From a virus (lineage: Duplodnaviria > Heunggongvirae > Uroviricota > Caudoviricetes), in the IMG/VR virus record IMGVR_UViG_2802429249_000004, positions 1-15,411 of that record: a stretch of DNA of 15,411 nt, one strand, 5' to 3'. Positions within the stretch are counted from its first letter, which is position 1. Each line of letters opens with the position of its first letter. Under the pieces are notes generated by a model, which did not search any database, was not told the DNA's origin, and was given only the letters and a program-made list of their open reading frames with translations. The translations under genes were made by a program, and so were the position numbers. This document shows positions 1 through 15,411 of this stretch, in pieces.

Positions 1-1215
1 ATGCTGCTTTCAGACCTTGCTATCAGACGCGCGAAGCCGAAAGAAAAGGCTTATACGCTCAATGACGGTAACGGGCTTTCGTTACTCATTGAGCCGAACG
101 GCTCGAAAGGGTGGCGACTACGTTACAGGTTTGCAGGAAAGCCCAAAATGTTGTCATTGGGCGTGTACCCTGATGTGTCTCTGTCTGATGCCAGGGCGGC
201 AAGGGATGAGGCTAAAAGGCTTCTTGCTGGTGGTATAAATCCAAGTGAGGCCAGAAAAGCCCAAAAGCGAGAACAGGCGAGCAAATTTGGCAATACTTTT
301 GAGGGTATCGCTCGCGAATGGTACGAAAAGCGGATCGACAGGTGGTCATCGTCATACGCCGAGGAAATGATCGAGACGTTTGAAAAAGACGTTTTTCCGT
401 ACATTGGCGGTAGGCCGATCGCAGAAATTAAGCCGATGGAATTGCTGGCGGTTCTTTCCCGTCTTAATGACCGTGGTGCGACTGAAAAATTGCGTAAGGT
501 TCGCCAGCGATGTGGCGAGGTGTTCCGGTACGCAATCATCACCGGACGCGCCGAATATAATCCAGCCCCTGACCTGGTGAGCGCATTTGCTCCACATAAA
601 AAAGAGCATTACGCCTATCTGAAGGCCGACGAACTGCCGGAATTTTTCCGCGTTTTTAATACGTACACCGGAAGCCAGATCGTCAAACTGGCAATGCGGC
701 TATTAATTCTGACAGGTGTCAGACCCGGGGAATTACGGCAGGCAGAATGGCGGGAGATCGATTTTGATAATCGTTTGTGGGAAGTGCCTAAAGAACGAAT
801 GAAGATGCGCCGTCCGCATTGTGTGCCATTACCAGAACAGGCGATAAAAATACTGGAGCAGTTAAAAAACATGACAGGCCAGTATCAGTTTATTTTCCCC
901 GGTCGTATTCACCACAGTAAGCCAATGAGTGAAATGGCGATGAATGTACTCATTCGTCGTATTGGCTACGCCGGGCGCGTCACTGGTCATGGATTCCGGC
1001 ACACCATGAGCACCATTTTGCATGAACAGGGCTATAACACTGCGTGGATAGAAACACAGCTTGCGCATGTTGATAAAAACTCAATTCGTGGCACGTACAA
1101 CCATGCGCAATATCTGGATGGTCGCCGGGAAATGCTCCAGTGGTACGCCGACTATATGGATTCGCTTGAGCATGGCGGAAATGTTGTTTACATAAAATCT
1201 GAAAAATTAAATTGA
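1..1215 (+). CDS. int: Site-specific tyrosine recombinase, P4-type integrase
   Basis: 404-aa ORF. N-terminus LSDLAIRRAKPKEKAYTLNDGNGLSLLIEPNGSKGWRLRYRF matches the P4/IntA integrase family arm-binding region. C-terminal catalytic signature GHGFRHT (H-x-x-R box) and RGTYNHAQY (tyrosine nucleophile region). ATG sits exactly at position 1, so the true start could lie upstream. Confidence 0.9.
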   Translation: MLLSDLAIRRAKPKEKAYTLNDGNGLSLLIEPNGSKGWRLRYRFAGKPKMLSLGVYPDVSLSDARAARDEAKRLLAGGINPSEARKAQKREQASKFGNTFEGIAREWYEKRIDRWSSSYAEEMIETFEKDVFPYIGGRPIAEIKPMELLAVLSRLNDRGATEKLRKVRQRCGEVFRYAIITGRAEYNPAPDLVSAFAPHKKEHYAYLKADELPEFFRVFNTYTGSQIVKLAMRLLILTGVRPGELRQAEWREIDFDNRLWEVPKERMKMRRPHCVPLPEQAIKILEQLKNMTGQYQFIFPGRIHHSKPMSEMAMNVLIRRIGYAGRVTGHGFRHTMSTILHEQGYNTAWIETQLAHVDKNSIRGTYNHAQYLDGRREMLQWYADYMDSLEHGGNVVYIKSEKLN

Positions 1216-1245
1216 TTACATTGATATTCTTATATAGGTGATATC

Positions 1246-2154
1246 ATGCTTCCTGAAAGATTGTTTTACACTCTGAATAAAGCAGCTTTTGAGATAAATA
1301 GAGATGTTTATGATTTATTTCACTATATATCAATCGGAATGGTTGATGTAGCAATAAATATAGACTTGTCAGATCTTATTGAAGAAGGAAGGGTCTCTGT
1401 TCGTGGTAAATTTAATAAAGAAATATTTACTAATACAAGAAGTAAAAAATTCAGACATCGCTCTAACTATGCAAAAATAAGTGAAGTTATTAGTTGCGAA
1501 TCTAATGGAAAGTTAAAACATAGAAAAGTCATTAAGGCATGTGGTCTTTTTTCTGTCCGAACATCCAATCTTTTTAAGATGGATGCTGATTTTGATAACG
1601 TGAAAGAATTTGTTGTTGATAGGCTATATCCAGTGAGGCTTCCATCTTTTACGCACTATAACTTGGAGGATTATAACCCACGAGTAATTTTAATTGATGG
1701 TGGTATAAATATTAAAACAAGCGATTTAGTTATAACTAAAAGTGAATTATTTTTGCTTAAAAATGGTGGAGTGACAATAAATTGGAGATTAAACCAAGTC
1801 AAATCATCTATGGATAAGTATCCCGATTTTATTAAAAGTAAAATGGATGGGGGAAATTCACGTAGTTGCGAAACAATTAACAAAATGGTGGGTAAGCCTA
1901 GAAATATCTATCGAAATGTTATTGTTGATGTAGCGAAAGCTACTCGTATTTCTTATCCGTGGAGCCATACGACATTAATTATCAATAAAATACACTCCTT
2001 GCTTTATTCTGTTGATGCTGTTAATACACCTAAAGTAGGTACAATTAGAAATATTCTTTGTTCAGAAGGAATTGGCAAAACAGGAGTGGAAACAAAAGAT
2101 GATTTCCGCTTGGTTATCCCAGAGGAGTACAGAAAATTATTTAAATTGAATTAA
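1246..2154 (+). CDS. Hypothetical protein, AT-rich orphan cargo gene (no recognisable domain)
   Basis: 302-aa ORF with SD-like AGGTGA 5 nt upstream of ATG. Codon composition is strikingly AT-rich (many AAA/AAT/ATT/ATA codons) compared with the flanking integrase and alpA. No competing ORF. Confidence 0.7.
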   Translation: MLPERLFYTLNKAAFEINRDVYDLFHYISIGMVDVAINIDLSDLIEEGRVSVRGKFNKEIFTNTRSKKFRHRSNYAKISEVISCESNGKLKHRKVIKACGLFSVRTSNLFKMDADFDNVKEFVVDRLYPVRLPSFTHYNLEDYNPRVILIDGGINIKTSDLVITKSELFLLKNGGVTINWRLNQVKSSMDKYPDFIKSKMDGGNSRSCETINKMVGKPRNIYRNVIVDVAKATRISYPWSHTTLIINKIHSLLYSVDAVNTPKVGTIRNILCSEGIGKTGVETKDDFRLVIPEEYRKLFKLN

Positions 2155-2252
2155 ATTGTATTTAATTTAAATTTTAATATTTAATTTAAAAAATACATCC
2201 TTCTCTTGTGTATATTCCAGAAACAGACTTTTATATGCATCAGGAGAAGTGT

Positions 2253-2453
2253 ATGGATAAGCAAAATTTAATTCGTATGCCAGAAACCATGCGCCGTACA
2301 GGCTATGGTAGGGCATGGATCTATAAACTCATTGCCCAAGGGCGTTTTCCTAAACCTGTAAAAATTGGCTCGCGAGCGATTGCTTTCGTTGAGAGTGAAA
2401 TTGATGAGTGGATTAATCAGCGTATTGCGGAATCACGCGGAACAGCTACCTGA
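2253..2453 (+). CDS. alpA: AlpA-family phage transcriptional regulator / excisionase-like HTH protein
   Basis: Sequence MPETMRRTGYGRAWIYKLIAQGRFPKPVKIGSRAIAFVESEIDEWINQR matches the AlpA/Vis family pattern (TG-x-x-R-x-TIY..., EIDEW). Start chosen at ATG 2253 because AGGAGA lies 6 nt upstream; the ORF track begins at 2208. Confidence 0.85.
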   Translation: MDKQNLIRMPETMRRTGYGRAWIYKLIAQGRFPKPVKIGSRAIAFVESEIDEWINQRIAESRGTAT

Positions 2454-2531
2454 TTAAATGGCTACGGGGCCAGAAGCCCCAGCTATCCACCAGCAAATAA
2501 AAAGTAACTTAATTCGATAGCAGGAGTTTTT

Positions 2532-3332
2532 ATGAAACTGCGAAAAACGCCCGTACAGGGGCAGGGCTTCGTTCGGCCTGAAAACCAGAATCTGCAAAAT
2601 TTCGGCGAAATTATCCCGATTATTTCCGGCGTTATTGGCGGGAGTGAAACCACTATTGTTAGCGCCAGAGCGTTACATAAGGCGTTAGGTGTAGGGCGCG
2701 TTTTCCGTTCGTGGATCAAGGGGCGCATTGAAGAATACGGGTTCACGGAAGGCGTGGATTATGAGGTTGTTGAATATTTGAGCCGACCCGATCCGGTGAG
2801 CGCAAAATCTCGCCAGCAAACCGCTCTTGAGTACATCATCACAGTGAACATGGCAAAAGAACTGGCGATGGTCGAACGCACCGAACAGGGCCGCGCCGTT
2901 CGTCAGTACTTCATCAAATGCGAGGAGGAGCTACACAAGGTAGCGCCAGTGCGTTCCGCAGCGTTACGCCGGGAACTGAAAGCCCGTATCACAGTTGCCA
3001 GCTACTTTAAGCCAATGTGTGCCGCGTTGGAGGCGTACCGGGCTGAACTGGGTAAAAACACGTTCCAGCACCACTACACCACGGAAGCCAATATGCTGGC
3101 GCGTATCGTGCTGGGTGGCATGACTGCAAAACAGTGGGCGCAGGCGAACGGCATCACAGGCGAACCACGCGACCACATGAGCACGTTGCAGCTTGAGCAC
3201 CTTTCTTACCTTGAGCAGAGCAATATCACGCTGATTGAGTTAGGCCTGGACTACCACCAGCGGAAAGCTGAATTAATTCGTCTTTCGCAGCGTTGGTTAG
3301 CCCGTCGCATGGAGGAAAACAGCCATGTGTAA
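2532..3332 (+). CDS. Phage antirepressor-like protein (AntA/AntB-type N-terminal domain)
   Basis: 266-aa ORF with AGGAG 5 nt upstream of ATG. Segment ARALHKALGVGRVFRSWIKGRIEEYGFTEGVDYEV resembles the AntA antirepressor domain consensus (..F..WIK.RIEEYGF.EG.DY). Assigned from memory of the family pattern, not searched. Confidence 0.55.
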   Translation: MKLRKTPVQGQGFVRPENQNLQNFGEIIPIISGVIGGSETTIVSARALHKALGVGRVFRSWIKGRIEEYGFTEGVDYEVVEYLSRPDPVSAKSRQQTALEYIITVNMAKELAMVERTEQGRAVRQYFIKCEEELHKVAPVRSAALRRELKARITVASYFKPMCAALEAYRAELGKNTFQHHYTTEANMLARIVLGGMTAKQWAQANGITGEPRDHMSTLQLEHLSYLEQSNITLIELGLDYHQRKAELIRLSQRWLARRMEENSHV

Positions 3333-4004
3333 CGCTCTGACCGTTACAAAAAGAGAAAGCGCCCCGTTGCCGGAGCGCCTTTGTGAACGAATAGCCTACT
3401 GCGCCATATTGCTTACTGTCTACGAGGCAGATTATAGCGTTGTGGTCGCACAGAGTGAAGGCGCTGATCACCGTTACTACAGCACGCCAGAAATGCAGAA
3501 TATTTTGCTGCAAAATGTCGTTGGTCACGCTGTCCGGAAAGCAAAAAATTTTGCTGGTAGCGCGACTGATGCGATTTTGTCAGGTCGCCAGGTGATGATC
3601 AATCTGATGTCTAATTTCGTTCTGGATAAAACAAAGGCGACCGCAGAGGGCCACCAGTGGGAAAGCTACACACTTGAACACATCGCCAACAATGCCAGAT
3701 TTGCGGCTGGTGGGCAATGTGATCAGTGTGCTGGCTTGCTGGTGGGCTATTCCTGCTCTTTAACATTGCCATGCCGCGATGTTTTCCAGGTATGCGACCC
3801 CATTTTTGTGCGCCTGTACTCTTTAAGGAATTTCTCAAGGATAAACGCACAGGGCGCGAATCTGTCTGACTCATATTCGTACGCTATCTTTCTGCGCTGT
3901 CTTTTCCGTGCCGGTGATGGTGTATTGGTTGATTCTTTGTTGGTCATTCTGTGTACCTGTAAAGCAATGCGCCGGAGTTCCTCACACCACGGCGATGATA
4001 GTTA
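3325..4004 (+). pseudogene. Stop-free frame beginning at an ATG overlapped with the antirepressor stop (CATGTGTAA); possible degraded or fused gene, 3' end undefined
   Basis: Start motif and first residues (MCNA...) mirror the coupled junction at 4856 (MCNA...). The first ~150 codons have protein-like composition. The frame then runs without a stop through the antisense of gene 4005-4310 and the promoter region into gene 4498-4863 (512 codons), with Cys/Ser-rich low-complexity translation in the middle. Confidence 0.25.
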
Positions 4005-4310
4005 TTATTCTGATTCTTTGGCCTTGCGGCGCTGGAGTTCTTCACGTGCGACGGTGACGAGTTGCCCGATCTCCTCGACAGCTTTGACTCCGATTTTTTC
4101 CACCTGCGCCAGTGCATTGAGCGAAGAAACCAGGGGATTTTCTCCGCTTCCTTCTGCCTGGCGGCGGGCGATCTCACCACGCATGGCGGTTACTATGAAT
4201 CCGGCGTTGCTTTCGCCGTCCAGTTTTACGGATTCCATGCCTTCAAAAGCATCATGTGGGATACGAATTGAAATCTGTTTTGATTTGTCGTTGATAGTGT
4301 TTTTTGCCAT
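4005..4310 (-). CDS. Small putative DNA-binding regulator (possible repressor of the divergent early operon)
   Basis: 101-aa ORF on the minus strand: MAKNTINDKSKQISIRIP...ELQRRKAKESE. AGGAGA lies 6 nt upstream of ATG (start 4310), and there is a double stop TAA TAA. It is divergent from the 4498 operon and shares the operator-bearing intergenic region. The ORF track lists it as 4005-4349 from an earlier ATG. Confidence 0.7.
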   Translation of the reverse strand: MAKNTINDKSKQISIRIPHDAFEGMESVKLDGESNAGFIVTAMRGEIARRQAEGSGENPLVSSLNALAQVEKIGVKAVEEIGQLVTVAREELQRRKAKESE

Positions 4311-4330
4311 GTGCATTCTCCTAAACAAAA

Positions 4331-4410
4331 GATGTGATTCAGTATACACAAAAAAGAATCACAAAAAATACTTGACCTGTGATTCAGTTAAATTTAATTT
4401 AAATCACACC
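4331..4410. promoter_or_regulatory. Divergent promoter/operator region: two dyads TGTGATTC-N14/15-GAATCACA overlapping a sigma70-like promoter (-35 TTGACC 4372-4377, -10 TAATTT 4395-4400)
   Basis: TGTGATTCAGT at 4334-4344 and 4378-4388 (direct copies). Inverted partners GAATCACA at 4357-4364 and AATCACAC at 4402-4409. -35/-10 hexamers with 17-bp spacing upstream of gene 4498. Confidence 0.5.
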
Positions 4411-4497
4411 TCAGTAAGAGGATGTAAACGACAACGCCCCGAACTGTTTGCGGCAGTAGCGGGGCGTCTAACCAAACCGTTAAATGAGGTAACGATT

Positions 4498-4863
4498 ATG
4501 GCTGGGGCACAGCATACCCAAACTCACCCTAAATTTATATACACCTTCCTGGCGGTGCACCGTGATTGCATGGCTGACGGTAAAAACACTGTTCATGTAG
4601 CCGCCGATACGCTGGTTGATGCCTGCGAGATGCTCAATGACATGGGCTATATCTCGGCAACATGGAAAGGGCGCGAAGAAAACACGTTGTTTATTCAGAA
4701 ATGCGAAAACAATTTTATCTGGCGTTTTATCGCCCTGAGTACGGCACAACCGCGCGTGATTCACATCGAGGCCACCAGCGAACAGGAAGCACGCCAGCAA
4801 TCTCCTGATGGCTGCGTGATGGTATTCGCTGCCCATATTCGCCAGGAGGTGGAGCATGTGTAA
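4498..4863 (+). CDS. Hypothetical protein (first gene of early operon)
   Basis: 121 aa. GAGG 8 nt upstream of ATG 4498. Stop overlaps the next start (CATGTGTAA). Confidence 0.65.
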   Translation: MAGAQHTQTHPKFIYTFLAVHRDCMADGKNTVHVAADTLVDACEMLNDMGYISATWKGREENTLFIQKCENNFIWRFIALSTAQPRVIHIEATSEQEARQQSPDGCVMVFAAHIRQEVEHV

Positions 4864-5080
4864 TGCAACATGGCCTGATGCAGCGGTAGACGCTATCAAA
4901 ACGCTGATGGATTCACTTATTGAGATTTCTGCTATCGCTGGTGTGGCGCATAAACACGCAGCCAGAGAATCAGAATGCATCTCCCATTATTTAGCATTTG
5001 TGCAGCTGAAAGCCGATCAGGCACTGGATAAGGCCGGAAAAATTATCATGGCTGATGTGCAGGAGGTGCACCATGCATAA
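4856..5080 (+). CDS. Hypothetical small protein
   Basis: 74 aa. Start overlaps the upstream stop (ATGTGTAA). Stop overlaps the next start (ATGCATAA). Confidence 0.6.
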   Translation: MCNATWPDAAVDAIKTLMDSLIEISAIAGVAHKHAARESECISHYLAFVQLKADQALDKAGKIIMADVQEVHHA

Positions 5081-5438
5081 CCTGTCAATTTCTGACCTTA
5101 ACAGCATTCAGTTTGACGAGAAATTTACCGGGCAGCTACTGGTCAATGTGGAGAATGGACGCGTGGTAAGTAATTATCACCTGCCGGATGGTGCAATTGC
5201 CGGAAGCGTTGAAGCATTGCTGGAGCTGGCAGAACGTGCGCGACTGATTAAGCCGTTAACGTGCCATCACGATGATAATCTGCATTTTACCGGACGCATG
5301 GTGAGTCACTACGAAAACGGCGTTGAAGTATCCTGCGAACGTCTGCGTGATGATTGCTGTTTCGGCACATTGCCGGAATTTATCGAATTGCTGACCAGTT
5401 GCGGTTATCAGGTCATTCAGGGGGGGAAACATGCGTGA
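5073..5438 (+). CDS. Hypothetical protein with internally duplicated ~50-aa FTG-motif domain
   Basis: 121 aa from ATG 5073, with AGGAGG 6 nt upstream; the ORF track starts at 5055. Two internal repeats (FTGQLLVNVENGRVVS...GSVEALLELAERARLIKPL and FTGRMVSHYENGVEVS...GTLPEFIELL) and paralogy with gene 5657-5857. Confidence 0.65.
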   Translation: MHNLSISDLNSIQFDEKFTGQLLVNVENGRVVSNYHLPDGAIAGSVEALLELAERARLIKPLTCHHDDNLHFTGRMVSHYENGVEVSCERLRDDCCFGTLPEFIELLTSCGYQVIQGGKHA

Positions 5439-5664
5439 TGATCGTTTTAATTCCCTGAAACAGGAGTTTGATGGCGCACCGGAAGATACATCGGGCGCAT
5501 TGTTGAACGTTGCTGACATGATGAAAGCTGCATATTTTCTTATCAATACCAATGGCTACAAGTCAGAGGGTGAAATGATTCTTAGTATTGCGTCGGACTA
5601 TGCGGAATATGTGGCAGAGGCGCGTTACAGAAGAAAATTCACGGAGGATATAAGCCATGCATAA
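5431..5664 (+). CDS. Hypothetical small acidic protein
   Basis: 77 aa. Start overlaps the upstream stop (ATGCGTGA). Stop overlaps the next start (ATGCATAA). Confidence 0.6.
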   Translation: MRDDRFNSLKQEFDGAPEDTSGALLNVADMMKAAYFLINTNGYKSEGEMILSIASDYAEYVAEARYRRKFTEDISHA

Positions 5665-5857
5665 TCATGAAGCGCATGTACCCGTAGTGCTTAATGTGCC
5701 AGATGATTTCACCGGACGCGTACTGGTTTACCTGGATAAAGGGAAAGTGAAATCACAACGCCGACTGAAAAGTAATGAAATTTTGGGTTCTCCTGAGTTT
5801 TTTTCTGAACTCTGTATTCGTGCAGAAATAAAACCGGAACTGCTGACAGGAAAATAA
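5657..5857 (+). CDS. Hypothetical small protein, single-copy paralog of the FTG-motif domain
   Basis: 66 aa, MHNHEAHVPVVLNVPDDFTGRVLVYLDKGKVKS...GSPEFFSELCIRAEIKPELLTGK. Aligns by eye with both halves of gene 5073-5438. Confidence 0.6.
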   Translation: MHNHEAHVPVVLNVPDDFTGRVLVYLDKGKVKSQRRLKSNEILGSPEFFSELCIRAEIKPELLTGK

Positions 5858-5861
5858 AACC

Positions 5862-6152
5862 ATGAAAAAGAAAAATTCTGGCTTTACTGCCAGCGGTCTC
5901 TCTCGGCCTGAAATCAGACACGGAGATATTTACCGCGACACCATACGTGGGGGACGAGCGGTTATTTGTCATGTTACGCCAGAAAATATCACCTACCGCC
6001 GTGACGCTTATGAATATGACTGCATAATGCCGTGCCGTCAGTTTGAGCGTGATTTTATTCTGGTGGAGAACAAACAACAGGAAGCGACGAGACGTGCAGC
6101 CATGAATATTAAAAAAATCCGGGCAATGTTGGTTGCGGGAGGTAAGAAGTGA
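5862..6152 (+). CDS. Hypothetical basic protein
   Basis: 96 aa. Stop overlaps the GTG start of the primase (GTGA), consistent with translational coupling. Confidence 0.55.
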   Translation: MKKKNSGFTASGLSRPEIRHGDIYRDTIRGGRAVICHVTPENITYRRDAYEYDCIMPCRQFERDFILVENKQQEATRRAAMNIKKIRAMLVAGGKK

Positions 6153-7954
6153 AAAACGCACCGAGTCTAAAATATCAGCCGAAGGATAAATTCACTGAGG
6201 TAATCATTTTTGCCGGGACGGATGCTTACGCCCATGCTCAACACTGGATTGAAAGTGAAGGACGAAAACACGGCGATAACGTGCCTCCTGTTTACCTGGG
6301 GCCAAAGCAACTGGCAGACCTGGCGAATATCCGCATTATTGACGAGAAACGCCGTTTTGCGCGTGTCTATATCGCGGGGGAGATAGAGCCAATCCAGATC
6401 AATACTATCGCTGAAAAGCTGGCGCTGGCTGGCGTACAGGACGCGAAATTATACAAAGGTATCACCGACCGGGAGCCGGAAAACTGGCGCGACTACCTGC
6501 AACGGATCCGCGAACAGGCAGAGAGTGGGGAAGTTTCAGCGATGAAATTAGCCACAAAAAATATTGACCTACCCAGGCCAGCACTAAATCAGATGGGAGC
6601 CAGCCAGAGAGGGGAAGTGTTACTTGAATATTATGGAAGAGCACTGGCTATAAATGATGATTCTGATGTAGTTCACCATTACAACGGAATTGTCTGGGTG
6701 CCTGTATCTGATAAGGAACTCCAGCGGTCTATGGCGAAGATTTTTATTGATGCTGGAATCAGTTATTCGCAAAACGCCATTAAATTTGCCGTAGACACAA
6801 TGAAATTGAGCCTGCCTGTTATGGGCGGGGCAGACAGGAATCTTATTGGATTCAGTAACGGGGTATTTGATACCCGGACGGGAAATTTTCGGGAGCATAA
6901 CAAAAATGACTGGTTGTTAAATGCCAGTGAATTACCGTTCAGCCCACCAGCAGAGGGGGAAACGCTGGCAACACATGCGCCGAATTTCTGGAAGTGGCTG
7001 CGTCGTTCGGTGGCAGATAATGATCGTAAAGCTGATCGCGTACTGGCGGCATTATTCATGGTACTGGCGAACCGGTACGACTGGCAGTTATTCCTTGAGG
7101 TAACAGGCCCAGGCGGAAGCGGTAAAAGTGTGATGGCTGAGATTTGTACCATGCTGGCGGGTAAGGCCAACACAGTATCGGCAAGCATGAAGGCTCTGGA
7201 AGACGCAAGGGAACGCGCGTTAGTAGTTGGCTTTTCGCTGATTATCATGCCGGATATGACTCGCTACGCTGGCGATGGTGCAGGAATTAAGGCAATTACT
7301 GGCGGCGACAAGGTGGCAATTGATCCGAAACATAAAGCCCCCTACTCCACACGTATTCCGGCAGTAGTGCTTGCGGTAAACAATAACGCCATGTCATTCA
7401 GTGACCGAAGCGGGGGGATCTCGCGTCGTAGGGTGATATTTAATTTCTCTGAGGTCGTACCGGAGAACGAACGCGATCCCATGCTGGCGGAAAAGATAGA
7501 AGGCGAACTGGCGGTAGTGATTCGCCATTTGCTAACACGATTTACCGACCAGGACGAAGCTAAAAGACTACTTTATGAGCAGCAAAAATCAGAAGAAGCG
7601 CTGTTGATAAAGCGCGAAGGTGATTCACTGGTGGACTTTTGCGGCTATCTGATGTCGTTGGTTAAATGTGAAGGAATGATGGTGGGCAATGCGGAAATAG
7701 TGCCATTTAGCCCGAGGCGATACCTGTATCATGCTTATTTAGCCTATATGTCAGCGCATGGCCTGGGAAAACCAGTATCACTGACACGCTTTGGTACTGA
7801 TATGCCAGGAGCTATGGCGGAATACGGAAAGGAGTATAAGCGGGCTAAATGCACTAAAGGCCCGGATAAAGGGCGAGTGATAACAAATGTTCTGTTAGAT
7901 GATGATGCTGATGGCTGGTTGCCAGCAGCTACAGGGATTAACGACAGAACATAA
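6149..7954 (+). CDS. P4 alpha-like primase/helicase (phage/plasmid primase P4-family C-terminal domain, D5-type P-loop NTPase)
   Basis: 601 aa. Walker A GPGGSGKS, with downstream segments typical of P4-family primase C-terminal/D5 NTPase proteins. GTG start with GGGAGG 6 nt upstream. Iteron cluster immediately downstream. Confidence 0.8.
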   Translation: MKNAPSLKYQPKDKFTEVIIFAGTDAYAHAQHWIESEGRKHGDNVPPVYLGPKQLADLANIRIIDEKRRFARVYIAGEIEPIQINTIAEKLALAGVQDAKLYKGITDREPENWRDYLQRIREQAESGEVSAMKLATKNIDLPRPALNQMGASQRGEVLLEYYGRALAINDDSDVVHHYNGIVWVPVSDKELQRSMAKIFIDAGISYSQNAIKFAVDTMKLSLPVMGGADRNLIGFSNGVFDTRTGNFREHNKNDWLLNASELPFSPPAEGETLATHAPNFWKWLRRSVADNDRKADRVLAALFMVLANRYDWQLFLEVTGPGGSGKSVMAEICTMLAGKANTVSASMKALEDARERALVVGFSLIIMPDMTRYAGDGAGIKAITGGDKVAIDPKHKAPYSTRIPAVVLAVNNNAMSFSDRSGGISRRRVIFNFSEVVPENERDPMLAEKIEGELAVVIRHLLTRFTDQDEAKRLLYEQQKSEEALLIKREGDSLVDFCGYLMSLVKCEGMMVGNAEIVPFSPRRYLYHAYLAYMSAHGLGKPVSLTRFGTDMPGAMAEYGKEYKRAKCTKGPDKGRVITNVLLDDDADGWLPAATGINDRT

Positions 7955-7981
7955 TACGAAATTTATAAGCTGAAACGTAAA

Positions 7982-14481: not shown

Positions 14482-15411
14482 ATGCCTATTCCAGCGAAGG
14501 ACAATTTGCTAAAAAGAATCCTGTCTGTAGATAATGCAACTCAACTACCAGCACTTATCGATAAAGATGTTATGCAGGAACAACACAATATCACAGCTAA
14601 TCTTCTGAGAAAAGGCTTAGGTATAGTAGCATTTAATATTCTGGAAGATTTTATAAAATCCAGAACTATAGAAATGTTTGATTTTATATCTAATGCACGT
14701 GTGAGATTCGAGCAGTTACCCGATTCTTTTAGAATTGCAGCAACAAATGGTGCATTAAGAGGATTAGTATATCAGGCTGGATTAGAAAAGAAAAATAATG
14801 GAGATTGGTTGGCACTAATACATTCTGAGGCCAAAAGTATTTTTTCAACGTCGCAATTTCCTTATACATTATCTCGAGTATCACTTCTTTCAGATGGTTC
14901 TAATGTTGGACATGATGATATACCAGAAGTAATGAAGTGTCTTGATATAACTGGTGGGTGGAAGACATTACAAAAAATATCGAACGATATTGGTGGTGGT
15001 ACATTAGATCTGAATGCTGCTTATAAAAATATGTTTTTCGATAGAAATAGATGTGCTCATGAAGCAGGTTTTAATTATCCATATACCTCTCTCGATAATT
15101 CTTTAAATGACATTGTTACTATTGCTTCTGCATTTGACATAGCGTTAACTACTCGTTGCAGGTATATAGAAAAACAACCTAATTTACCGCTTTCAGCTCA
15201 TAAAGAAAAAGATCCGTTTTCATATCGGTTTTTAATCGCTGATGGAGATGTTTTTCGAGAGAAAAAATCATTAGAACCTGGTGCGAAAACAATAAAAAAA
15301 TGGAGTAATATCTCTGATGCACAATCTAATTTAATTCCTAAGCTAAGACTCCGCGATGAGTTTTTGATTTATATAGGAAAACAGAGAAGGCTTAGTGATT
15401 GGTATTTGTGA
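14482..15411 (+). CDS. Hypothetical protein, operon partner of the DUF262 protein; weak HEPN-like R-x4-H motif
   Basis: 309 aa. ATG lies 1 nt after the upstream TAA, so the two are tightly coupled. Same AT-rich composition. Motif RNRCAH at aa 188-193. Stop TGA falls at the window end. Confidence 0.7.
   Translation: MPIPAKDNLLKRILSVDNATQLPALIDKDVMQEQHNITANLLRKGLGIVAFNILEDFIKSRTIEMFDFISNARVRFEQLPDSFRIAATNGALRGLVYQAGLEKKNNGDWLALIHSEAKSIFSTSQFPYTLSRVSLLSDGSNVGHDDIPEVMKCLDITGGWKTLQKISNDIGGGTLDLNAAYKNMFFDRNRCAHEAGFNYPYTSLDNSLNDIVTIASAFDIALTTRCRYIEKQPNLPLSAHKEKDPFSYRFLIADGDVFREKKSLEPGAKTIKKWSNISDAQSNLIPKLRLRDEFLIYIGKQRRLSDWYL

Follow-up and report, generated by a model that had tools for sequence, protein, structure and literature searches.

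The stretch considered here (hereafter the window) is the entire 15,411 nt of the IMG/VR viral record IMGVR_UViG_2802429249_000004 (positions 1 to 15,411), assigned to the Caudoviricetes, and our subject is a plus-strand operon within it whose small genes lie at 4498-6152. We consider it probable that this region is the left (early) operon, of the type known from phage P4, of an Escherichia coli phage satellite akin to P4 and the phage-inducible chromosomal islands (PICIs), which has integrated at a tRNA-Thr gene and in which the small genes are joined by a recurring 8-nt stop/start junction. All the operon genes named below are on the plus strand. First comes a gene for an AlpA/Vis-type regulator, the counterpart of P4 ORF88 (2253..2453; Pfam Phage_AlpA, E 9.7e-20), followed by antA, an AntA/Bro-network antirepressor-like gene (2532..3332; Pfam AntA, E 2.5e-23; anti-repressor in PHROG), the last codons of which (…ENSHV) hold the Shine-Dalgarno sequence (SD) and the start of the next open reading frame (ORF). 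The latter is an eta-like ORF of 512 codons (3325..4863) that runs antisense through two minus-strand genes and a divergent promoter and ends as g1, a gene nested within it that encodes a Kil/Icd-like protein (4498..4863; NCBIfam Icd-like, E 3.8e-22). Four further small genes follow: g2 (4856..5080; PHROG 5146), which in some relatives is fused to g4 in the PHROG 2512 manner; g3 (5073..5438), which holds the PHROG 340 mini-domain twice (about 5073-5258 and 5259-5435; PHROG 340 in two stretches, E 5.6e-30); g4 (5431..5664; PHROG 24341); and g5 (5657..5857), with one PHROG 340 mini-domain (E 1.3e-19). The products of g1 to g5 have 121, 74, 121, 77 and 66 aa, as a preliminary description of this DNA correctly gave them. 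The operon continues with g6, coding for a DUF4222 protein (5862..6152; Pfam DUF4222, E 7.7e-18), and g7, coding for a P4 alpha-type replication protein with D5_N, DUF5906 and Pox_D5 domains (6149..7954; Pfam and PHROG).

The element occupies thrW: close copies, 98% identical, adjoin tRNA-Thr and proBA and encode an integrase, AlpA, AntA, the YlcI/YnfO-family and Icd-like proteins, the small genes, DUF4222, a primase, ProQ/FinO and PerC. The PICI EcCIMP1 has the identical site and gene set (PMC11773190). Within its 15.4 kb the window has the features by which Gram-negative PICIs are recognized, namely an integrase at one end, beside a specific att site, alpA and a primase/replication gene, without phage structural or lysis genes. 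The E. coli PICIs EcCIMP1, EcCICFT073 and EcCIEDL933 lie, like the window element, beside proA at tRNA-Thr, and share with it the integrase, AlpA, antirepressor, primase and PerC-family regulator, the window being free of structural genes, and the defense-like cargo at the far end. In the PICI papers that we examined, neither the junction architecture nor the long ORF nor the PHROG 340 genes are described. This gene set at tRNA-Thr, together with the match to the P4 left operon set out below, bears out the earlier assignment of the region to the early operon of a satellite. The 3.1 kb of the region find a match in 1661 of the 5426 complete E. coli genomes searched, and the same four small genes are called in the RefSeq annotation, by the Prokaryotic Genome Annotation Pipeline (PGAP), of an E. 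coli chromosome that is 98% identical.

Five junctions, with the downstream start codons at 3325, 4856, 5073, 5431 and 5657, have the form SD-N6-9-C-ATG-NN-TRA with an 8-nt overlap, ATGNNTRA. At each, the ATG lies 5 nt ahead of the stop of the upstream ORF, a GGAGG-like or G-rich SD precedes it by 6-9 nt, and both SD and ATG of the next gene are located within the final seven or eight codons of the previous one. The core reads CATGTGTAA at 3324-3332 and 4855-4863, ATGCATAA at 5073-5080 and 5657-5664, and ATGCGTGA at 5431-5438. The C-termini of the upstream proteins are HV, HV, HA, HA and HA and the N-termini of the downstream proteins MC, MC, MH, MR and MH, because both sets of residues are two readings of C-ATG-NN-TRA. 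This architecture, noticed earlier, is confirmed at all five sites from the sequence; that the five are consecutive holds if the 512 codons of 3325-4863 are counted as one gene, and does not hold for the PGAP annotation, in which only the last part of that ORF is annotated. Likewise, of the MCNA start attributed to the ORFs at 3325 and 4856, a shared MCN is present, forced by the ATG-TGT-AAy overlap, and the rest of the two ORFs is unrelated (p 0.6). The MHN common to g3 and g5 stems from the paralogy of their domains together with the ATG-CAT-AAy overlap.

The junctions fall into two sequence classes. Class I, with the consensus CAGGRGGTGnnnCATGnnTRA and its CAG always in the frame of the upstream gene, comprises g1/g2 (junction 1, CAGGAGGTGGAGCATGTGTAA, 4843..4863, of direct-repeat family D1), g2/g3 (junction 2, CAGGAGGTGCACCATGCATAA, 5060..5080, the crossover partner of junction 1) and g3/g4 (junction 3, CAGGGGGGGAAACATGCGTGA, 5418..5438, which contains a run of seven G residues, G7, at 5420-5426). 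Class II, with the consensus GGAGGAwAwAmAGCCATGyrTAA, comprises antA/long ORF (junction 0, GGAGGAAAACAGCCATGTGTAA, 3311..3332, an 8-nt overlap that shares 17 of 22 positions with the g4/g5 junction), g4/g5 (junction 4, GGAGGATATAAGCCATGCATAA, 5643..5664, read from the sequence and from relatives) and g4/X77, X77 being an extra gene of some relatives. All five window junctions are on the plus strand, and the 21-nt junction CAGGAGGTGGAGCATGTGTAA, repeated at 5060 and 5418, represents the direct-repeat family that ranks first in the 3.1 kb. The next two junctions of the operon differ: g6 starts 4 nt past the stop of g5, and g6 and g7 overlap by 4 nt (GTGA). Counted by itself, the motif CATGNNTRA shows no enrichment in the window, with 9 occurrences where 5.8 would be expected; unlike this bare count, the placement of the junctions is non-random. 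An SD-anchored version of the pattern was too rigid to be used for counting.

Across the E. coli genome, -8 overlaps rank third, behind -4 and -1, and 707 of 2,987 unidirectional gene pairs are spaced between -8 and +6 (PMC10666635). The overlaps of the window are within this range, which in the work of Huber et al. (2019, 2023) is predictive of translational coupling (PMC10666635). Overlaps are usually of -4 or -1, the -8 class being rarer and reportedly less efficient (PMC10666635); in the window, unlike in the usual coupled pairs, -8 is the rule. We extended the comparison to 66 related loci taken from IMG/VR, representing 64 distinct operons. In these, 8-nt overlaps occupy 173 of 325 junctions over 15 different neighbor pairs, the loci being mostly close relatives and the counts not independent. 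A few junctions of these operons have 11-nt variants (ATGTGCAATAA), and the 4-nt form appears only at g6/g7 and at g1/Y76, where Y76 is another extra gene.

The ~50-aa domain shared by g3 and g5 is present in three copies, namely residues 1-62 of g3 (g3N), residues 63-121 of g3 (g3C) and g5. Smith-Waterman comparisons against 2000 shuffles gave p~1e-8 for g3N-g5, p~4e-6 for g3N-g3C and p~1e-4 for g3C-g5, while hhalign of the g3 family against the g5 family returned a probability of 95.6% (E 1e-8). Both the pairwise and the profile alignments are thus significant, and the three copies are paralogous, as had been suspected; the FTG and GS motif strings by which the domain had first been marked fit exactly in two of the copies and not in the third. 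A profile of the family run against 1.84 billion representative proteins recovered 98 clusters (at 50% identity), mostly single-domain proteins of 60-90 aa. An AlphaFold model of g5, based on 45 family sequences, has a predicted local distance difference test score (pLDDT) of 90 and consists of a beta-hairpin and then a helix. As modeled, the repeated domain is a ~50-aa beta-hairpin/helix module that occurs in tandem inside g3 and again as the paralog g5. Comparison of the g5 fold with PDB and BFVD produced no usable match, and searches of Pfam, NCBIfam and PADLOC with g2-g5 retrieved no family; PF27490 is recorded on two homologs. In tblastn searches of 50,697 phage records g3 had no match and g1 matched one record, and a scan of genome contigs with g3 confirmed no locus. 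A possible internal duplication within g1 lacks significance (p 0.14).

Distant members of the domain family are encoded in prophage early operons beside cI-type repressors, where 8-nt overlaps are also frequent. In 32 of 45 of them residue 3 is N, K, D or E, a bias that arises because the overlap, as ATG-NNT-AAn or ATG-NNT-GAn, imprints itself on the downstream protein. In one such operon of a distant genome (L069; GCA_002591785.1, 3389-7769), which includes a PHROG 340 member, 7 of the 13 junctions are 8-nt overlaps, and this style of overlap is therefore not confined to satellites. The breadth of the family also bears on the idea that the whole pattern reflects chance or gene calling, with small ORFs that are not real genes. 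This would be in keeping with the lack of over-representation of the bare motif and with small proteins that belong to no Pfam family, but all four small genes are in PHROG families with E 1e-19 to 1e-48, PGAP calls them, the proteins are conserved in hundreds of genomes, and the domain has both the 98 clusters and the g5 model described above. These conservation data refute it, and we regard an artefact as extremely improbable.

The likeness of g3 to g5 had suggested the duplication of a cassette (74+121 aa versus 77+66 aa), whereby g2+g3 gave rise to g4+g5, with the overlaps enforcing an obligate coupling for a complex of fixed stoichiometry. The shared domain fits such a history, but g2 shows no relation to g4 in sequence (p 0.7) or in profile (hhalign probability 0.9%), and apart from g3/g5 no other pair among the small families has any profile similarity by hhalign. 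Further, the small genes assort independently in the 64 operons, which display the combinations g1-g2-g3-g4-g5, g1-g3-g5, g1-g3-g4-g5, g1-g3-g6, g1-g2-g3-g5 and g1-g3-(g2::g4 fusion)-X77, besides variants with the extra genes Y76 and X77; there are relatives without g2, g4 or g5 in every combination, or with g2 placed after g3. With the genes so freely combined, a fixed complex of all four is unlikely, and the same junction also serves between genes that are unrelated, antA and the long ORF among them. A duplication of the cassette is thus not upheld: on the sequence comparisons, g2-g5 are independent cassettes, not a duplicated pair.

The notion of a complex draws on two further observations, viz. 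the greater frequency of short overlaps among subunits of heteromeric complexes in E. coli (30.4% versus 6.8%; PMC10666635) and the in-frame g3::g4 and g2::g4 fusions of relatives, found in many sequences, which is a pattern expected of interacting partners. The fusions can be traced to the junctions. The SD of g4 is the G7 run at 5420-5426, which has 5-10 G in relatives, and the length of this run sets the outcome: an 8-nt g3/g4 overlap, a g3 that stops 2 nt short of g4, or an in-frame g3::g4 fusion with a product of 196-197 aa that is found in many sequences. The variation of the run could reflect ordinary indels or a slippage-prone site. Other fusions are g2::g4 (the PHROG 2512 architecture), Y76::g2 and Icd::domain. 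Two exact copies of an 11-nt sequence, TGCGTGATGAT, are present, inside g3 at 5344-5354 and at the start of g4 at 5432-5442, and the g3::g4 fusion protein P0029 results from an 88-nt deletion between the copies at 5344 and 5432. The two domain copies of g3 have in turn recombined in several registers to give single-domain chimeras of 67-91 aa. The g3::g4 and g2::g4 fusions lend weak support, at the level of sequence, to a physical partnership of the products, and g3 with g4 and g2 with g4 may act together; however, such fusions need a one-base indel only at the junctions, and given this mechanical ease they may be merely tolerated. Taken as a whole, the duplicated cassette with a stoichiometric complex appears to us an unlikely account.

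The independent assortment of the cassettes has a direct counterpart in the junctions themselves. In relatives without g2, the g1->g3 junction consists of exactly the left half of g1/g2, cccgtattcgccaggaggtg, joined to the right half of g2/g3, caccATGcataacc, with the crossover inside a 9-nt repeat, CAGGAGGTG, whose copies in the window are 217 nt apart. In another relative, L051, g4 is deleted, and the missing segment extends exactly from the g3/g4 junction to the g4/g5 junction. Against mosaic relatives, islands of 98-100% identity stand at the junctions (e.g. 5600-5640), whereas the gene bodies are 35-50% identical. We infer that the in-phase junction is a recombination joint: a ~21-nt sequence held in constant phase relative to the upstream ORF would be portable, recombination between two such junctions would insert, delete or swap whole small genes with the chain unbroken, and one-base indels in the G-rich SD would turn two genes into one fusion.

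An alternative is that the junctions resemble each other by convergence, as an SD, an ATG and a stop have to fit in ~20 nt; they would then serve translation only, and gene content would vary by ordinary illegitimate or homologous exchange elsewhere. The letters shared by the junctions are indeed mostly GGAGG, ATG and TRA, the distant prophage operons (e.g. the one with 7 of 13 junctions) use many 8-nt overlaps between unrelated genes, and some identity breakpoints are intragenic. Yet the hybrid g1->g3 junction is exact and its crossover lies within the repeat, the g4 deletion spans from junction to junction, the near-identity at the junctions contrasts with that of the flanks, and the likeness exceeds the constrained letters, involving ATTCGCCAGGAGGTG and the AGCC before the ATG. 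Hence we hold convergence to be improbable, and the junction as a recombination joint is the reading pursued below. Short conserved boundary or linker sequences are reportedly found between diverged modules of lambdoid phages (in work associated with Susskind and Botstein, Juhala in 2000 and Clark in 2001), with mosaic joints often located there. The linker of the window, which has a fixed reading phase, would differ in being also a translational coupling signal, and exchange at it would therefore preserve the unbroken chain of ORFs.

The P4 left operon has the order ORF88(vis/alpA) - eta/kil - epsilon - orf151 - orf106 - alpha, and the window agrees with it in gene order and direction. The window AlpA, upstream and in the same orientation, is 37% identical to P4 ORF88 (E 5e-15). 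At the other end, g7 closes the operon as alpha does in P4 and is 49.6% identical over 448 aa to residues 327-769 of P4 alpha (E 2e-155), with no similarity to its N-terminal third, the primase part. The first ~145 residues of g7 have no match in the alpha primase domain or in any family of Pfam, and the g7 counterpart in the 98% identical genome (L001) is frameshifted. The N-terminus of g1, TQTHPKFIYTFLAVHR, matches that of the 65-aa P4 Kil, TPSHPEFVFVFAAVRR, with p~5e-6. In P4 (NC_001609), 8-nt overlaps link kil/eta to epsilon (8168-8175) and epsilon to orf151 (7888-7895), comparable to the four that follow g1 in the window; these P4 junctions read GGAGGTGTCCCGTGCGTAA and CATGTTTGA, with upstream proteins that end ...SRA and ...THV, so that P4 and the window share 8-nt overlaps at which the upstream protein ends (H/R)-(V/A)-stop. 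The two also share a Kil/Icd-like protein encoded by the terminal part of a long ORF whose start is upstream of an internal promoter, the long ORF of the window being the eta arrangement on a larger scale. According to PMC10111431, P4 kil is the tail of the longer ORF eta, which starts at the end of the alpA homolog. The same source attributes to Forti et al. 1999 the finding that translation of eta/kil prevents premature transcription termination (via PMC10111431).

The window also differs from P4. P4 epsilon, orf151 and orf106 are unrelated to g2-g6 in sequence comparisons, g6 is a DUF4222 protein where P4 has DUF5375, and the antA gene is inserted between alpA and the long ORF. Since g2-g5 hold the position of P4 epsilon and vary in content among relatives, the analogy suggests that they act on the helper phage or the host, which is the weakest step of the account that we favor. 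Instead of an immunity RNA, the window has a divergent YlcI/YnfO-family gene with its operators, antisense inside the long ORF. This gene (4005..4310, minus strand; NCBIfam YlcI_YnfO_N, E 6.6e-18; PHROG 6522, E 8e-57) encodes a putative repressor, given its position divergent from the early operon. Two palindromes, TGTGATTC-N15-GAATCACA, 45 bp apart at 4333..4408, the second of which overlaps a TTGACC -35-like hexamer, are by their sequence likely operators. Downstream of the repressor gene is a small minus-strand gene encoding 66 aa (3747..3947), which PGAP calls in L001 and which has no family match. Three terminator-like hairpins are located on the minus strand at 3356-3381, 3636-3655 and 3846-3858, downstream of the YlcI operon and inside the plus-strand long ORF, and a GC-rich hairpin (ACGCCCCG...CGGGGCGT) without a T-run is found at 4434-4467, in the leader just before the SD of g1. 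In one relative (L065, 2801-3467), RNA immunity of the P4 type (two C4 RNAs, isrK and a1b1 targets) and two Icd-like domains replace the YlcI module, and immunity modules have therefore evidently been swapped within the satellite family.

The frame of the long ORF has no stop throughout 3325-4863, against 23 and 32 stops in the other two plus-strand frames. It is open in every related locus, for 233-598 codons where the contig allows, including loci with a repressor module that is only 29-54% identical and loci in which the ORF is directly continuous with the N-terminus of an AntA protein. In codon-order shuffles the probability of finding no stop in this frame is 0.17 for the YlcI gene and 0.08 for the small minus-strand gene; in shuffles of the other segments it is 0.42 for the spacer 3948-4004, 0.012 for the promoter region 4311-4497 and 6e-4 for 3325-3746. 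The absence of stops in the window and in all relatives, taken with these null probabilities, leads us to infer selection for an open and translated frame. PGAP does not call the long ORF, and treats g1 as a pseudogene fragment (pseudo Icd-like).

As to what this translation might achieve, we propose a ribosome bridge. On transcription coming in from alpA/antA, ribosomes that couple where antA stops would translate 3325-4863, crossing the antisense strand of the repressor gene, the operators and the early promoter. Such translation would shield the transcript from Rho, and would also collide with the expression of the repressor and silence it. After the bridge, the same in-phase junction would carry ribosomes through g2-g5. 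We advance tentatively, and with some reservation, the combined idea that the bridge over the antisense repressor, along with junctions kept as recombination joints for helper-directed proteins, constitutes an undescribed version of the P4 eta/kil switch that employs a protein repressor. The immI operon of P1 and P7 (c4 RNA - icd - ant) offers a parallel: translation of icd is said, in a study by Biere, Citron and Schuster from 1992, to be needed for continued transcription. In these phages the small gene of the Icd type stands before the next gene and is linked to it in translation. The g1 protein has the NCBIfam Icd-like domain; the window differs in that it has no c4 RNA, that its downstream genes are others, and that its antirepressor is upstream, not downstream.

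From antA (2532) to g7 (7954), i.e. over 5.4 kb, the untranslated stretch between ORFs is never longer than 4 nt. The junctions would hand ribosomes from ORF to ORF and keep the long transcript covered, such coverage would let it escape Rho-dependent polarity as has been shown for eta/kil of P4, and the passing on of ribosomes would give roughly proportional output. By analogy to the P4 architecture, protection from polarity would fit at least as well as the fixed stoichiometry that had been suggested. The obligate character that the preliminary description ascribed to the coupling is, judging by the sequence, not supported: with SDs of their own and no occluding structure, the downstream genes need not depend on upstream translation.

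Several points weigh against the account as a whole and temper our confidence in it. Coupling and protection from polarity are transferred from P4 by analogy. Each downstream gene has a good SD, and independent initiation is therefore possible; the RNA folds of the junctions have z-scores of -1.2 to +1.2, with no structure standing out, and a scan of C/G ratios for rut-like C-rich, G-poor tracts revealed nothing clear. With regard to the junctions as joints, the SD, ATG and stop constraints by themselves force part of the similarity, the close relatedness of the loci limits the counts as stated above, and some of the intragenic mosaic breakpoints fall, e.g., at the conserved FTG motif, where they give g3N::g5 chimeras such as P0070. 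With regard to the satellite lifestyle, sid, delta and psu were not seen among the ORFs scanned in the 15.4 kb of the window, and neither Pfam, PADLOC nor fold matches provide direct support for a helper-directed role of g2-g5. Finally, the window has no Rfam match at E<=1 to a CI/C4 immunity RNA or to seqA/seqB targets, the same search having found C4, isrK and a1b1 in P4 and in L065.

Beyond the operon, the primase gene is followed at 8326-9152 by genes of the ProQ/FinO and PerC families, which overlap each other by 4 nt. The PerC-like gene of the related PICI EcCIMP1 has been reported as a silencer of LEE (locus of enterocyte effacement) expression (PMC11773190). The far end of the island (13425-15411) has defense-like cargo, of which the first gene encodes an NsnA/GmrSD_N (DUF262) protein (PADLOC, E 7e-65) and the second, which reaches the window edge, a HEPN RiboL-PSP protein.

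Read in this way, the operon connects E. coli islands of a very common class with the regulatory logic established for phage P4. A junction that would double as a recombination joint offers a concrete explanation, at the level of sequence, of how satellites could shuffle their small early genes without breaking their expression. The long ORF, which stays free of stops across a repressor gene in antisense, may connect derepression with anti-termination and the shut-off of the repressor. The repeated domain, which belongs to a small uncharacterized family and occupies the place of the helper-derepression gene of P4, is a reasonable candidate for functional work.

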